Shown piece after piece: positions 13,281 through 51,837 of a stretch of 64,000 bases of DNA (position 1 is the stretch's first letter; the number at the start of each line of letters is the position of its first letter). The translations under genes were made by a program, and so were the position numbers. Under the pieces are notes generated by a model. The model saw only the letters and a program-made list of their open reading frames with translations, made no database searches and had not been told where the DNA came from. Origin of the DNA: Promethearchaeota archaeon (GTDB taxonomy: Archaea; Asgardarchaeota; Lokiarchaeia; Sigyniarchaeales; SOKP01); contig JAGXOA010000259.1 of the NCBI GenBank assembly GCA_019894715.1, positions 225-64,224 of the forward strand, given 5' to 3'.

Positions 13281-13326
13281 TCGAACTACCACGCCCTAAA
13301 GGACGTGGCTTTCTGGTGGAAGACGG
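13281..13326 (-). mobile_element. 46-bp single-hairpin IS200/IS605-derived mini-element
   Basis: In element orientation it reads TTAC|CCGTCTTCCACCAGAAAGCCACGTCC-TTTA-GGGCGTGGTAGTTCGA|. 8-bp stem (one G.U) with a 4-nt loop. The left arm matches the left ends and the right arm matches the right ends of the larger copies. Confidence 0.7.
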
Positions 13327-13906
13327 GTAAATATCAAATAGAAAATTCAAAGCTTAACTTTTTAATAATTTTGGCTTTAATAAAGAAGATCTTAAAAGAA
13401 ATTAATAAAAATTATTAACAATACAGAAAAATCCAATAATTAATATAAACTACTTTGATATCTCTTTCTTGAGATTTTTTATGTGATAATTATCTTTAGA
13501 AATTTTTAATCTATTTAAGTTAGAAGGTTTGAATTTAGAATATGGAATAATAATACTTGATATAATAAATTCAAAGCTAATTGAATTTGATATCTCATCA
13601 ATATTCACTTTTAGGTGATAATTCTTATTTTTTACTTTTGAACTCATAAATCATCTATTTTTTTTTAAAAACATATAATTCATAAGTATTTAAAGAAAAA
13701 TTAGAATTTTTTAAGTTCTTTCAAATATAGTTTCATAAAGTATCTTTGGCTTTTGCACAAATCTACAATTTAATTTTCTATTCTCCTTTAATTACTAGGC
13801 GATAATATCAATTTATCTAATTTCTGATAAATATATCTACTTTAAGATGATAATATTAAAAAAAAAAGAATAGTCTTTTTTAATATGAAGATAATTAGGT
13901 TTTTTC

Positions 13907-24692: not shown

Positions 24693-24737
24693 TTGAACTA
24701 CCACTACCTAAAGGATGTGGCTTTCTGCTTTGATATT
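24693..24737 (-). mobile_element. 45-bp single-hairpin IS200/IS605-derived mini-element
   Basis: In element orientation it reads TTAC|AATATCAAAGCAGAAAGCCACATCCTTTAGGTAGTGGTAGTTCAA|. The left part equals the left end of the 51293 element and the right part equals the right-end terminus. Confidence 0.7.
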
Positions 24738-24785
24738 GTAAAAAAAAGAAGTACAAAAAGAAAGATAAATAGATAATAAAAAAAA

Positions 24786-24992
24786 TTAGAAATCTGTTGA
24801 TTTTTTTTTCCTTAATCTAAAAAACAAGAATACAATATTGATTAAGATAAGAATTATGATCACAGTAATTTGAAAGGGAAGTTTATCCGCAATAACTGAA
24901 ATTCCTGACATAGTTAATAGAAGGTTTGATGTCATGTCTCTTATGAATTCACTCTGCTCCATAGAAGATTCTAATTTATCATCAATACTCAA
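24786..24992 (-). CDS. hypothetical 68-aa tail-anchored membrane protein (start lies in IS-derived sequence)
   Basis: Track ORF with a TTG start. The first about 7 codons (SIDDKLE) fall in sequence shared with the MITE-like copies at 48560..48600 and 43470..43490. C-terminal TM ITVIIILILINIVFLFF followed by RLRKKK. Confidence 0.25.
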   Translation of the reverse strand: MSIDDKLESSMEQSEFIRDMTSNLLLTMSGISVIADKLPFQITVIIILILINIVFLFFRLRKKKSTDF

Positions 24993-25108
24993 AATAGAGT
25001 TTTTCCTCTATTTAAAAATCGGGTGTGATATCGATTAGTGATTTTTTTATCATTTTATAACAAAATTCATCCCATCCCTAAAGGAATGGGTTTTCTTTTG
25101 TTTATATG
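24971..25108 (-). mobile_element. left-end half of an IS200/IS605-type MITE (no matching right end)
   Basis: About 85-90% identical by eye to 43470..43597, including GTGTGATATC.ATTAGTGATTT and the LE hairpin CCCATCCC-TAAA-GGAATGGG (25071..25090). Similarity ends at CATAT next to TTAT. Confidence 0.7.
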
Positions 25109-28041: not shown

Positions 28042-29016
28042 TTAATCTTTTTTAATTTTTAGATGGATATGATTAAATAAATCATTTAGTTCTTGATATA
28101 TTTCAAATTTATTGTCTATTAGTTTTGTAGCAATATTATCTAACTCATCTACATTAATTATTTTATCCAAAATAATATTTTCGATTGTATCAACCAAAGA
28201 TTCTCGAATTTTATACATATAACGTTTTTTCTTTTTGTCTTTCAAAAGTTCAGAACGTTCAAGATACTCTTTATGTTCCAATATTTTCTCGACTAAATCT
28301 TCAATGCCATCACCTTTAACGGAATTTGTCATTAAAACCGGAGGTCTCCAACCAGTTTGAGAATTGGTTGTATCATCTAACATTAGTTCGATTTGTACAG
28401 CGATATCTTCTCCACCTAAATCTTTTTTATTTACATCATATATGTCTCCAATTTCAATTATTCCTGCTTTTTGAATCTGAATAGCATCTCCCATATTTGG
28501 AACCTGAATGACAATTGTTGTATAGACTAAATTATAGATATCAAGTTCTGCTTGTCCAACACCAACTGTTTCAATAATAATTATATCAATTCCAAAAGCT
28601 TCATATAAAAGGGTGATATCAAATACGGCCCTTGATATACCTCCTCCATGACCTCGTGAAGCCATACTTCTTATAAAAACATTTGGATGACAGGATACTT
28701 TACTCATTCTAATACGATCACCTAAGAAAGCACCTCCACTAAAGGGTGAAGTTGGATCAATAGATATGATTCCAATTCCTTTACCTCTTTCTGCTAATAA
28801 TTTTGCTACTTGTCCAGTTAATGTACTTTTTCCAGCACCAGGAGAACCCGTAATCCCTATGATATAAGATTCATTATCTAAGTTATTAAAATGTTTAAAA
28901 ATTTCAGACGCCAATGAGGGATCATTTTCAATAAGAGTTATAAGCCTAGAGAGAGCAATTTTATCTTTTTCTTTGAATCTTTTACATAGTTGCTCAATAT
29001 CATAATTTACATTCAA
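28042..29016 (-). CDS. meaB: MeaB/ArgK-type G-protein chaperone of B12-dependent mutases
   Basis: P-loop GITGSPGAGKSTL, ETVGVGQ, NKKD (NKxD). TTG start with GGTG 8 nt upstream. Confidence 0.9.
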   Translation of the reverse strand: MNVNYDIEQLCKRFKEKDKIALSRLITLIENDPSLASEIFKHFNNLDNESYIIGITGSPGAGKSTLTGQVAKLLAERGKGIGIISIDPTSPFSGGAFLGDRIRMSKVSCHPNVFIRSMASRGHGGGISRAVFDITLLYEAFGIDIIIIETVGVGQAELDIYNLVYTTIVIQVPNMGDAIQIQKAGIIEIGDIYDVNKKDLGGEDIAVQIELMLDDTTNSQTGWRPPVLMTNSVKGDGIEDLVEKILEHKEYLERSELLKDKKKKRYMYKIRESLVDTIENIILDKIINVDELDNIATKLIDNKFEIYQELNDLFNHIHLKIKKD

Positions 29017-29163
29017 GGTGTTAACACCGTTTAAAAATCTCTATATTCTTCAGTAAATATTGAAAAAATTTAAATCAAGAGATAGTCCTAATCTAATAAT
29101 AAAAGAAATGGAAGATTTAATAATTATTTTATGAAAACATATTTTAATAGATATCATTATTAA

Positions 29164-29330
29164 GTGACCTACACACGGCCTAAAGGCCGTGGCTTCCTAC
29201 GAGTGCACAATCGCTTCTAGTATGGATTGGTCTGTATGTCGTAGAAAACCATCCTAATGCTTTTGGAATGATTCCTCGTTCACAGAGGATTTATGCGATA
29301 GGAAATCAAAGGTATCCTTTATATCAAGGA
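29164..29330 (-). ncRNA. putative omega-RNA (reRNA) scaffold relic of the deleted TnpB element
   Basis: Position (last part of tnpB plus the sequence up to the RE hairpin) corresponds to where TnpB guide-RNA scaffolds are encoded. Locally much more GC-rich than the surroundings. Expression unknown. Confidence 0.35.
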
Positions 29331-29460
29331 AATATACCATAATATTAATCGCTGAATTAAGATCTCGATCAATATGACTTCCACAGTCATAATTAATAAT
29401 TCTCTCGAAAATTGGTCTTTTTTTAGCCTTTCCACATTTACAACAGACTTGCGTTGTCTT
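29254..29460 (-). pseudogene. tnpB: tnpB (IS605 OrfB) C-terminal remnant, 68 codons, no start
   Basis: Translated by eye as KTTQVCCKCGKAKKRPIFERIINYDCGSHIDRDLNSAINIMVYF..., i.e. the TSQxCxxCG zinc-finger and DRDxNAAxNI RuvC-III motifs of TnpB. Confidence 0.75.
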
Positions 29461-29574
29461 ATTACCATGCTCAATTCACCCCCTTCCTAAAGGGAGGGGT
29501 CTTCTTGAACAATTATGATAAAAATTGTTCAAAATAAGAGAATTTAAATAGTTAAATAAGCAAATAATCAATAT

Positions 29575-29973
29575 TTAGCTCTCAATATTATTAGTTATAA
29601 AGTCTACAATATCTTTCGTGATTGTACCAGGACCAAAAATATTAGCAACTCCTAAACCCTTTAATCTAGGAAAATCATTTACTGGGATTACACCTCCTAA
29701 GATTACTAAGAAATCATTTTCTACTCCTTTTTCTTTCAGTCTCTCGAATAATTGTCTTGTATATGCCATATGTGCTCCTGAATGAATGCTCATCCCAATT
29801 ACATCGACATCCTCATGAATAGCGGATTCAACAATTTGATCAATATTTTGAAATCCACCAAATATTAACTCCATTCCAGCATCTCTTAAAGCTCTTGCTA
29901 CAACGATGCCTCCGCGCCAATGCCCGTCTATCCCTGGCTTAGTAATTAAAACTCTTATCTTTTTATTAGTCAT
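29575..29973 (-). CDS. B12-binding small subunit of an acyl-CoA mutase
   Basis: DxHxxG motif GIDGHWRGG and a Rossmann-like B12-binding domain, 132 aa. Confidence 0.9.
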   Translation of the reverse strand: MTNKKIRVLITKPGIDGHWRGGIVVARALRDAGMELIFGGFQNIDQIVESAIHEDVDVIGMSIHSGAHMAYTRQLFERLKEKGVENDFLVILGGVIPVNDFPRLKGLGVANIFGPGTITKDIVDFITNNIES

Positions 29974-30115
29974 AAACCATACAATTTATTTAAATTCTAA
30001 TATATTCATAATAAATTAAATTAATAACATAATTCGCTAACATTTACATATATTTCCATATTTTTAATCGATATTATAAGAAAATAATGTAATATGTTTA
30101 TTAAAAAATTATATT

Positions 30116-30168
30116 ATTTCAACTGTTTGTTGAAATTTTACAAAAATCTATAATTATCTATAAAAATC
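30116..30168. repeat. 53-nt hairpin repeat, copy 2
   Basis: 48/53 identical to 7761..7813. Lies between the stop of the mutase large subunit (30268) and the start of the small subunit (29973). Confidence 0.8.
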
Positions 30169-30267
30169 AAAAAATTATCACCCTTCCGTGATTAAAATTT
30201 GTAAATTCTTCAATCCTTTTTTTTTTCAATAAATCTAAGAGAAAATTGAAATTGTAATTTTCTAAAT

Positions 30268-36909: not shown

Positions 36910-37306
36910 ATCCTTAAGAAGTACTTATTTTTTCTTAAAAGAAAAAGAAAACTAAATAATTTCTTCAATAATATTTTAGCACATTTGTTTAGAAAACTAA
37001 AAACATATAATATTTCTATAATTATAATTGGCGATCTAAAAGGAATTAGAGGGATTCCACTTCCTCAGCATTATTATGATAAGAAACAAGATGATCTAAA
37101 ACTTCTGGTCTTATAATATTTTTCTTAAGAAAATTCAAGATAAATTCAAGGAAAGTAGAATTGACTTAATCTTGATTAATGAATCCTATACATCATCTAT
37201 TTATCCTCTCTGTAAGATGAGAGTTAATCTTAGTGATATGAATTCTTTATGTACTCATTGTGGATATGAGCAAGATAGGGATGTGATAGGAAGCATAAAT
37301 CCCTAA
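36910..37306 (+). pseudogene. tnpB: tnpB (IS605 OrfB) 3' half, frameshifted
   Basis: Frame 1 reads ...NILAHLFRKLKTYNISIIIIGDLKGIRG... and ends at stop 37114..37116. The reading continues in another frame from 37112 as YNIFLKKIQDKFKESRIDLILINESYTSSIYPLCKMRVNLSDMNSLCTHCGYEQDRDVIGSINP*. No N-terminal half. Confidence 0.75.
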
Positions 37307-37429
37307 ACTAGACACATTTATGAACATCAGAGTGAAAATATGATATTAGAGGACTATCCAGTAGTTTCTCAGATTCTTATTAAGTCTTAGAGACTACAAA
37401 TCCACTATCTTTGGGTAGTGGTAGTTCAA
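37307..37429 (+). ncRNA. putative omega-RNA/right-end module of the tnpB pseudogene
   Basis: Ends with RE hairpin CCACTA-tctttggg-TAGTGG (37402..37421) and terminus GTAGTTCAA (37429). Homologous to 43388..43480 on the opposite strand. Confidence 0.4.
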
Positions 37430-43387: not shown

Positions 43388-43597
43388 TTGAACTACCACT
43401 ATCTAAAGGAAGTGGATTCATAGTCCCTAAACCTCAACAAGAATCTTAGACACTACAGGATAGTTCTCTACCCTAATATCATTAATATTTTCCTCTATTT
43501 AAGAATAGAGTGTGATATCAATTAGTGATTTATGCAATATTTTTTTTTAACAAAATTCATCCCATCCCTAAAGGAATGGGCTTTCTTTTATTATATG
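43388..43597 (-). mobile_element. 210-bp MITE derived from an IS200/IS605 (TnpB-type) element: LE + RE/omega-RNA 3' part
   Basis: RE hairpin 43396..43415 and terminus TTCAA (43388). 43410..43480 is homologous to the region after the tnpB pseudogene (37340..37400). LE hairpin 43561..43580. Flanked by TTAC (43598..43601, minus strand). Confidence 0.8.
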
Positions 43598-51292: not shown

Positions 51293-51468
51293 CATATTGA
51301 AGCAGAAAGCCACATCCTTTAGGGTGTGGATGAATGCATATAAAATACCTATTTATTAATTCTTCTCTGTTCTTATCTTTAAATATAAAAAACACATTTT
51401 ATACTTAAAATACTTCGAACTAATACCTTAGAATTGATACCTACTACCTTTAGGTAGTGGTAGTTCAA
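51293..51468 (+). mobile_element. 176-bp IS200/IS605-derived MITE (LE hairpin + RE hairpin) with an internal TATA motif
   Basis: LE CATATTGAAGCAGAAAGCCACATCC-TTTA-GGGTGTGG (hairpin 51310..51329). RE CTACTACC-TTTA-GGTAGTGG (51441..51460) with terminus GTAGTTCAA at 51468. Confidence 0.8.
51378..51385 (+). promoter_or_regulatory. TATA box (cTTTAAATA) inside the MITE, facing the right end and the sir2 fragment
   Basis: Same CTTTAAATA core as the six gene promoters listed. Confidence 0.35.
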
Positions 51469-51837
51469 AATTATACTAAAAAAAGTATTTTAAAGATAAA
51501 AAAAAAAAGTTCTAATTTACCTCCAAAGTGTAAAATATGTTCTTCTCCCTTGAAGCCTTCTGTAATTCTATTTAGAGAAATTTTACCCTCATTTGAATGT
51601 TATAAATCTCAGCAACTAGCAAAAGAGACAGATATATTATTAGTCGTGGGCTCATCCCTCACAGTTAATCCAATAGCAAATTTACCATTATACAGCATAA
51701 ATGCAGGAAGAAAATTAATAATTATAAATGATGAATCTACATATTTAGATGATAAAGCAAATGTAGTTATTAAAAATAGAACAGAGATTATTTTACCATT
51801 GCTTTTAGAACAAATCAAAAAAGAAATTTCAAAATGA
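51457..51837 (+). pseudogene. Sir2-family NAD-dependent deacylase, C-terminal about 45% only
   Basis: CKICSSPLKPSVILFREILP...DILLVVGSSLTVNPIANLP...GRKLIIINDESTYLDDKA matches the second Zn pair and C-terminal Rossmann half of CobB/Sir2. The N-terminal catalytic half is absent, and the ORF's GTG lies inside the MITE right-end hairpin. The usual FGE is FRE here. Confidence 0.7.

Follow-up and report, generated by a model that had tools for sequence, protein, structure and literature searches.

What is the 3′ end of a tnpB nuclease gene doing between the gene of a B12-binding mutase subunit and meaB in a Lokiarchaeal genome, and does the element that carries it still have a function? The locus lies on contig JAGXOA010000259.1 (assembly GCA_019894715.1), of which positions 225 to 64,224 were analyzed. 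This 64-kb stretch is called the window below; element coordinates are whole-window positions, and all features of the element are on the minus strand. A preliminary description of the sequence had seen here a TnpB element stripped to its guide-RNA module, which could be neutral debris, a terminator or processing structure within an operon, or an RNA used in trans by a TnpB encoded elsewhere. We consider it highly probable that the element is a 354-nt, non-autonomous palindrome-associated transposable element (PATE) derived from a tnpB-only element of the IS200/IS605 family (IS1341-type) of ~1.45 kb, that it multiplied after the deletion, and that it is most likely an inert relic now.

Results

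The element occupies positions 29164-29517 (-). Its right boundary was placed at 29164 because the flanks of ~26 related loci, all of which end in ...GTAGTTCAC, diverge right after this motif and are hypervariable directly past TTCAC. The left boundary at 29517 was set from the flanks of the left end (LE), which starts with CAT or CAG across the family; TTTAT stands before it in 11 of 13 independent flanks, and the same context is seen in the LE read-through of P0016, a related protein described below. In the window, TTTAT (29518-29522, -) stands directly 5′ of the LE, outside the element, and is the putative transposon-adjacent motif (TAM). The span first proposed for the element, 29164-29515, was thus right at 29164, and its other end moves to 29517 on the evidence of the TTTAT flanks.

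From 5′ to 3′, the element begins with a 52-nt LE remnant (29466-29517, -), inside which lies a subterminal hairpin (CCCCTCCC-TTTA-GGAAGGGG; 29479-29499, -) that occurs once in the window and has no matches in shuffled sequences. The conserved LE core, consisting of TCAAGAA, the hairpin and GATGAATTGAGCA, is common to the window element and the related loci L004-L014 and L025. The tnpB remnant (29197-29465, -) comes next and is followed by the right end (RE), with its own subterminal hairpin (CACGGCC-TTTA-GGCCGTG; 29174-29191, -). The RE hairpin has a perfect 7-bp stem and no shuffle matches, and both hairpins have TTTA loops. At the RE terminus (29164-29172, -), the transposon-encoded motif reads GTAGGTCAC against a family consensus of GTAGTTCAC, the difference being a copy-specific T-to-G change. 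The termini, CATAATTG... and ...GTAGGTCAC, form no inverted repeats, and the flanks (...TTTAT on one side, TTAATAATG on the other) contain no target-site duplication. GC content is 42-45% inside the element versus 16-30% in the spacer flanks. The parts named in the preliminary description (an LE hairpin, a tnpB 3′ end without a start codon, a GC-richer stretch and a perfect 7-bp RE hairpin) are all present on the minus strand. A 10-bp perfect inverted repeat, TTGAACAATT/AATTGTTCAA, also crosses the LE boundary, its arms lying in the flank (29523-29532) and in the LE (29505-29514); it is probably a chance occurrence, since by a rough estimate ~0.7 such repeats are expected per 700 nt of 80% AT sequence.

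Scanning one genome per species yielded 66 related loci, mostly in Promethearchaeota (Asgard) MAGs (metagenome-assembled genomes). Many of them hold an intact tnpB of 430-461 amino acids with 67-77% identity to the fragment, and a full-length TnpB query retrieved 965 homologues at E ≤ 1e-30. Of the intact elements, L076 (ENA assembly ERZ27271183) is the closest; it encodes a 432-amino-acid TnpB and measures 1447 nt from LE to RE. In a BLAST comparison the window element matched it in two blocks, the LE with 87% identity over 55 nt and the 3′ part plus RE with 82% over 311 nt, between which the alignment leaps from subject position 183 to 1286; the junction sequences were also compared directly. 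This match with a ~1.1-kb gap identifies the window element as an internal-deletion derivative of a tnpB-only IS200/IS605-family element. At the deletion junction (29465-29466, -), LE sequence ending in ...GAGCATG is joined to tnpB sequence (...GTAATAAGA-CAACG), and ~1.1 kb is gone. Intact Promethearchaeota tnpB-only elements of the InsQ/TnpB family (L003, L004, L007-L013, L025, L076) share with the window element the LE core, the RE hairpin, the GTAGTTCAC terminus, the TTTAT flank and a five-helix RNA scaffold, with 70-77% protein identity over the retained part. They differ in being ~1.45 kb long and in encoding a 430-460-amino-acid nuclease with all RuvC segments, the window element being ~1.1 kb shorter.

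A comparable pair of loci occurs in Promethearchaeota Bin_204, another Asgard MAG, where L039 (2670-3282) and L037 (2878-3300) carry ~98% identical tnpB 3′ remnants corresponding to residues ~306-417. In L039 the C-terminal part is fused to a 5′ portion made up of the LE, promoter region and first ~15 codons, and in L037 the upstream sequence is unrelated. By sequence comparison, this pair goes back to a separate internal deletion within the same broad family. We rejected the idea that remnants in related genomes preferentially retain the 3′ end, as these loci were found via C-terminal motifs and are a biased sample.

The remnant peptide matches the Cas12f1-like TNB domain (Pfam PF07282; 34 bits, E = 3.4e-8), above the curated cut-off, and residues 345-432 of the intact Asgard TnpB L003 align to it by tblastn with 76% identity. 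Its frame reads IEHGNKTTQVCCKCG...DRDLNSAINI...QKH before the stop, the open frame being IEHGNKTTQVCCKCGKAKKRPIFERIINYDCGSHIDRDLNSAINIMVYF...QKH. GenBank annotates the ORF (open reading frame) as a 73-amino-acid “transposase” (MBY9007913.1), identical to the window ORF; the frame contains no ATG, GTG or TTG start, and the annotation uses ATT. Two copy-specific mutations lie within the remnant. At 29389-29391 (-), the third zinc-finger cysteine is changed to tyrosine (TGT to TAT), so that the window reads INYDCG; this position is C in 10 of the 11 other sequences of alignment A2 and R in the remaining one. At 29254-29256 (-), a tryptophan codon has become a premature stop (TGG to TAG), and with it the pair that closes the loop of scaffold helix 2 (columns 108/118) is broken. 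Because sibling copies read Trp at this position (...FQKHWDGFLRHTDQSVLEAIVHS and then the stop), the remnant extends to the original TAG at 29197-29199, adjoining the RE, and comprises ~89 codons with the zinc finger, RuvC-III and the C-terminal tail. The last 68 codons of tnpB followed by a separate GC-rich stretch, as the locus was first read, are therefore one coding remnant: the tnpB 3′ end was correctly recognized, and the stretch past the premature stop is the last 18 codons of the gene. What remains does not make up a functional nuclease, with only residues 345-432 left, the third cysteine mutated and the frame interrupted. The helix-turn-helix, RuvC-I and RuvC-II regions are missing, as is the LE-internal segment that likely carries the tnpB promoter in intact elements.

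We asked whether the non-coding product of this segment had fared better than the protein. For 26 loci, the RE and the final ~170 nt of tnpB were aligned (alignment A3) and folded with RNAalifold. The consensus has five helices and 37 pairs, with 97.5% of cells paired and 11 pairs changed on both sides; none of 500 shuffles reached these pairing values, and partner columns that were slid out of register paired in only 34-51% of cases. In the outer helix, coding-region GUGAAC pairs with the terminal GUUCAC; two internal helices of the coding region covary (one pair being C-G in 13 sequences and U-A in 13, another A-U in 16 and C-G in eight), and the remaining two are an invariant UCUACGA/UCGUAGG helix and the RE hairpin (helix 5), four of whose stem positions covary across the 26 loci. 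Folded as a single sequence, the window scaffold has z = -3.4. In intact genes, synonymous-codon identity climbs from ~0.6 to 0.79-0.86 across the last ~45 codons, as expected where an RNA overlaps coding sequence.

The covariance model R1, for which only 12 intact loci were used (alignment A4), all from other Asgard genomes, matches window positions 29164-29311 (-) over its full length (model positions 1-148) with 157.6 bits and E = 4.4e-35. The match covers the last ~115 nt of tnpB plus the RE and ends exactly at the RE boundary, 29164. From this full-length match we conclude that the predicted scaffold of an omega-RNA, the guide RNA of TnpB, is retained in the window element. The covariance comparison with intact copies proposed in the preliminary description was thus positive, and its view that the nuclease is gone and the omega-RNA-coding part (tnpB 3′ end plus RE) kept is borne out. 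Conservation of the RE hairpin may just as well reflect a role as a DNA hairpin for TnpA; the evidence of the coding-region helices favours a conserved RNA. An invariant small hairpin, CCUC-UGUGAAC-GAGG (29280-29294, -; A4 columns 24-38), presents in its loop the GUGAAC that forms the 5′ strand of the outer helix with the terminal GUUCAC (29164-29169; A4 columns 143-148). The modelled pairing suggests a pseudoknot beside the guide, beyond what a covariance model can represent.

By analogy with known systems, the element would be a predicted omega-RNA gene whose guide is the adjoining flank. The predicted guide segment, TTAATAATGATATCTA (29148-29163, -), directly 3′ of the RE, was assigned by position only, following the published omega-RNA architecture (PMC10691335; PMC10055086). 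A search of the window for targets of this guide, a check that had been suggested for the locus, gave no second match beyond chance (eight matches at up to three mismatches versus 12.6 expected). Rfam returned no match at its gathering thresholds. HgcC (RF00062) was hit at the same place and strand with 15.4 bits against a threshold of 50 (E = 0.41), and in none of eight related loci; we treated this hit as chance.

The preliminary description missed that the element is not alone. Its source MAG, deposited as “Candidatus Lokiarchaeota archaeon” (accessions MBY9005360-MBY9008179; the window MeaB is on the same 76,719-nt contig as MBY9007913.1), encodes at least 14 short “transposase” fragment proteins on different contigs of unequal length, and those aligned in A2 are ~78-96% identical to the window fragment. 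Ten accessions carry the junction peptide (M/I)EH(G/S)NKT(T/K)Q, for example EHGNKTTQ. In P0016 the same LE is read through into a different upstream flank. The junction of P0013 lies 12 codons further upstream, and L069 and P0019 are longer, 5′-truncated copies without an LE. P0004 and P0019 are frameshifted, and several sibling copies retain an open 92-codon frame. The identical junction in ten accessions, together with the different flank of P0016, indicates multiplication after the deletion, not decay in place, and points to the window element being one copy of a multiplied non-autonomous family. A junction-specific pattern, GAGCATRGTAATAAGACAAC, had a single match in metagenome contigs (L070), which lies in a gene without similarity to the element and was dismissed as chance; the RE pattern had no matches in viral contigs.

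The B12-binding subunit gene stops at 29575 and meaB starts with TTG at 29016; the element lies between these two positions, on the same strand as both genes. In four orthologous loci (L071, L072, L074 and L075; MeaB identity 77-85%), the B12-binding gene is also followed by meaB and no element is present. Their spacers measure 167-203 nt, and the 558-nt window spacer would measure 204 nt without the 354-nt element. These element-free spacers of matching length identify the element as a lineage-specific insertion. A run of five Ts (29520-29524) directly precedes the LE. The insertion lies ~25 nt upstream of a block, TTTTCATAAAATAATTATTrAAyC (29114-29137, -), that is kept ~110 nt upstream of meaB in five Lokiarchaeal loci with otherwise diverged spacers. 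Judging from its conservation, this block may be a promoter or regulatory site of meaB, and the insertion has left it undisturbed.

In three of these relatives a 158-amino-acid ORF without a Pfam hit occurs on the opposite strand (L072, 222-698; L074, 139-615; L075, 1707-2183). In L075 it lies between the mutase large-subunit and B12-binding genes; the contigs of L072 and L074 do not extend to the large-subunit gene. The corresponding window position (29974-30267) holds only a 295-nt gap of 14-17% GC. Long spacers and the opposite-strand ORF in relatives, taken together, describe a conserved gene cluster and not a tight operon. The claim that the element is embedded inside the B12-mutase operon was accurate as to neighbours and strand and overstated as to the rest, given a lineage-specific insertion in a ~200-nt spacer. 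Co-transcription with the mutase genes is possible from the gene arrangement, and the mutase gene cluster itself looks unaffected, with three intact ORFs and the conserved spacer block in place.

Several other mini-elements were recognized in the window. E2 (24693-25108, -; ~416 nt) is PATE-like, belongs to a related subfamily and lies between a MaoC-like ORF and a CobA/BtuR ORF, its LE (CATATAAACAAAAGAAAACCCATTCC-TTTA-GGGATGGGATGAATTTTG...AAATCACTAAT) preceded by TTTAT. Its RE is CCACATCC-TTTA-GGTAGTGGTAGTTCAA; there is no tnpB remnant, and the interior may hold a small ORF. The PATE-like E3 (43388-43597, -; ~210 nt) has the same LE as E2 and an RE ending in GTAGTTCAA, and an RE-proximal segment of ~85 nt is ~80% identical to the 3′ region of E5. 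E4 (~51293-51468, +; ~176 nt), also PATE-like, consists of LE and RE hairpins only and overlaps the start of ORF 51457-51837. Similarity of this ORF to the Sir2 profile is confined to the C-terminal third (profile positions 125-180 of 180), and the ORF may be a truncated or disrupted Sir2 gene. E5 (~36980-37429, +) is a decayed 3′ remnant of a different TnpB family, with a scaffold-like segment before an RE ending in GTAGTTCAA; the motifs IIGDLKGIRG, zinc finger and DRDVIGSIN are recognizable, broken by stops, and tblastn with the L003 TnpB did not detect E5. A solo RE-like remnant (AGAAAGCCACGTCC-TTTA-GGGCGTGGTAGTTCGAC; 13281-13397, -) in an AT-rich intergenic region of ~800 nt ranked second among the matches of the scaffold model (17.6 bits, E ~ 0.02), its RE hairpin being the only recognizable part. 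These elements span grades of reduction, from E5 (remnant, scaffold-like segment and RE) through E3 (LE, ~85 nt and RE) to E2 and E4 (LE and RE only). Since E2 and E4 are without a scaffold, retention of the scaffold is no condition for persistence.

Discussion

The closest precedent for the window element is found in the haloarchaea. PATEs were defined in Haloquadratum walsbyi as derivatives of IS1341-type/IS605-type transposons (Dyall-Smith et al., 2011; PMC3119063). Palindromes lie near PATE termini, terminal inverted repeats and target duplications are absent, and the short length leaves no room for a transposase gene; their ends are related to the IS605 type, they originate when repeat-mediated deletion removes the core, and some keep C-terminal coding remnants (PMC3119063). 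The window element likewise has subterminal palindromes at both ends, neither terminal inverted repeats nor a target duplication, and too little length for a transposase or effector (354 nt, with a ~89-codon remnant and an internal stop). Both of its ends are homologous to those of the complete element L076, and it arose by internal deletion of the core. It is also multi-copy, at the protein level and by its ten same-junction accessions; copies of H. walsbyi PATEs are ~90% or more identical. It therefore resembles PATEs in every feature that could be assessed, and mobilization by a TnpA may be presumed by analogy. The differences are that the host is an Asgard (Lokiarchaeal) MAG and not a haloarchaeon, and that the window family keeps a longer 3′ segment (~300 nt) with a complete omega-RNA scaffold; the 2011 description, which predates omega-RNA, is silent on the latter. 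[quoted passage not shown] The window element has neither, and strictly speaking it is therefore a PATE, not a MITE.

PATEs often encode omega-RNAs (Meers et al., 2023; PMC10055086), and mobilized standalone omega-RNAs that act in trans exist (Altae-Tran et al., 2023; PMC10691335). Standalone or PATE-borne omega-RNAs (Altae-Tran et al., 2021, in the summary given in PMC10691335; Meers et al., 2023, PMC10055086) resemble the window element in being scaffold-bearing transposon-end units that encode neither effector nor transposase and occur alongside effector-encoding elements in the same lineage. According to that summary, action in trans has been proposed, and shown for some published cases. 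The window element differs in being known from its sequence, in having decayed scaffold pairs and in that the searches turned up no compatible intact TnpB from its genome.

We propose the following course of events. An internal deletion of ~1.1 kb would have fused the left end, just past the LE hairpin, to tnpB at codon ~345, giving a product of the LE and RE hairpins with the last ~89 codons between them. In this short form it would then have multiplied in the Lokiarchaeal genome to at least ten same-junction copies, presumably with a Y1 TnpA in trans moving it as single-stranded DNA and inserting it 3′ of TTTAT, and one copy would have entered the ~200-nt spacer between the gene of the B12-binding mutase subunit and meaB. 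Because the scaffold extends over the RE and the final ~115 nt of tnpB, such a mini-element would still hold a complete scaffold gene, with the adjoining flank TTAATAATGATATCTA as its guide. If a compatible TnpB were present, the RNA would guide it to cut the empty site, TTTAT/TTAATAATG... (at this locus of the form ...AATTTTTAT/TTAATAATGATA..., the slash marking the insertion point), and recombination would restore the element.

The window copy itself is probably an inert, slowly decaying relic of this once-mobile mini-element, because its promoter region is lost, mutations specific to this copy affect the zinc finger, scaffold pairs and RE motif, and no cognate TnpB was found. Four private substitutions separate it from the family consensus (zinc-finger Cys to Tyr, Trp to stop, Val to Ile, and T to G in the terminal motif). 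Of these, three disrupt scaffold pairs, the T-to-G change doing so in the outer helix; this is the highest number among the 26 sequences, the others having 0-2. Among the best 120 matches listed from a search of 5.8 billion proteins, no intact TnpB was more than 75% identical in the C-terminal 88 amino acids, and none of the matches checked came from this MAG, which is incomplete. Of the three options first offered for the locus, neutral debris fits this copy best.

Some observations weigh against this account. The same-junction evidence comes from protein sequences and contig bookkeeping, not from sibling DNA, and metagenome assemblies can break or chimerize at repeats. No Y1_Tnp match was obtained in the 10 scanned of the ~18 window ORFs of 120-180 amino acids. 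Three broken pairs versus 0-2 elsewhere is no strong contrast, and the word “inert” is based on four substitutions and on finding no cognate TnpB in an incomplete MAG. Furthermore, ~130 nt of zinc-finger/RuvC-III coding sequence is kept upstream of the modelled scaffold without explanation, and the true 5′ end of the RNA may lie upstream of that model.

The alternative that deserves most attention is a live guide module that acts in trans: read-through out of the B12-binding gene, or an internal promoter, would supply a transcript that is then processed, and a TnpB from elsewhere would use the RNA to cut empty or similar sites and so keep the mini-element in the population. The nearly intact scaffold (34 of 37 pairs, 157.6 bits), the strand shared with the upstream gene, and the precedents of standalone omega-RNAs in trans and omega-RNA-encoding PATEs (PMC10691335; PMC10055086) are all consistent with it, as are related intact TnpBs, 75% identical in the C-terminal 88 amino acids, in sister populations of the same sample series (P0023/L076). 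We nevertheless regard it as unlikely. None of the TnpBs listed comes closer than that 75%, and the matches checked are not from this MAG; the LE segment with the likely promoter is deleted, the T5 run stands directly before the LE, the three substitutions at paired positions give no sign of purifying selection, and E2 and E4 persist in the same window with no scaffold at all. It is very improbable that a full-length tnpB element inserted here, eroded in place and was never mobile in its short form. Deletions are evidently recurrent, as the differing 5′ ends of L069 (no LE) and P0013 (longer junction) show, and 3′ remnants with varied breakpoints are common in related genomes; however, independent deletions would not repeat one breakpoint in ten accessions on different contigs, and P0016 joins the same LE to a different upstream flank.

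Recruitment by the host is harder still to credit. The hairpins might serve as a terminator, attenuator or RNA-processing site that tunes expression of the mutase small subunit against that of MeaB, and stable GC-rich hairpins in an AT-rich spacer, on the strand of both genes, would suit such a role. Yet the element is absent from the four orthologous loci with spacers of ~170-200 nt, its sequence is common to copies at unrelated loci, and the conserved spacer block downstream of the insertion is intact. Nor is the GC-rich RE stem placed directly before a T-run, as in a hairpin-type terminator, since TGTAGGTCACTTAATAATG comes next; the terminator or processing role once suggested for the element thus finds no support. 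Least of all do we believe that the 73-92-amino-acid zinc-finger/RuvC-III fragment is itself a selected product. Several siblings have the open 92-codon frame and GenBank labels the ORF a transposase, but the RuvC-I and RuvC-II catalytic segments are gone, the window copy has a mutated zinc-finger cysteine and a premature stop, the copies P0004 and P0019 are frameshifted, and with no conventional start the annotation resorts to ATT.

A broader possibility, which we hold to be doubtful, is that an omega-RNA-only family of this Lokiarchaeon has come to exceed its parent nuclease gene in number and may have outlasted it (at least ten copies versus no cognate intact tnpB detected), persisting as a hyperparasite on a borrowed TnpA and a diverged TnpB. 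If true, each copy would add a new guide, one of them aimed at the mutase-meaB spacer, and Asgard archaea would have their first documented case of this kind.

Conclusion

A literature search, only partly specific to Asgard archaea, found no specific description of such elements in these organisms. PATEs with omega-RNAs and standalone omega-RNAs are already published, and the understanding of TnpB systems is unchanged by this element. The window element adds an Asgard-archaeal member to the transposon-end mini-elements that keep the guide-RNA gene of TnpB after loss of the nuclease. The analysis also supplies a putative TAM (TTTAT), element boundaries and a five-helix scaffold model for the large Asgard TnpB family from which it derives. 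For Lokiarchaeal MAGs more generally, short “transposase” ORFs of this kind are non-coding remnants, and contig breaks in such genomes may often fall in these repeats.

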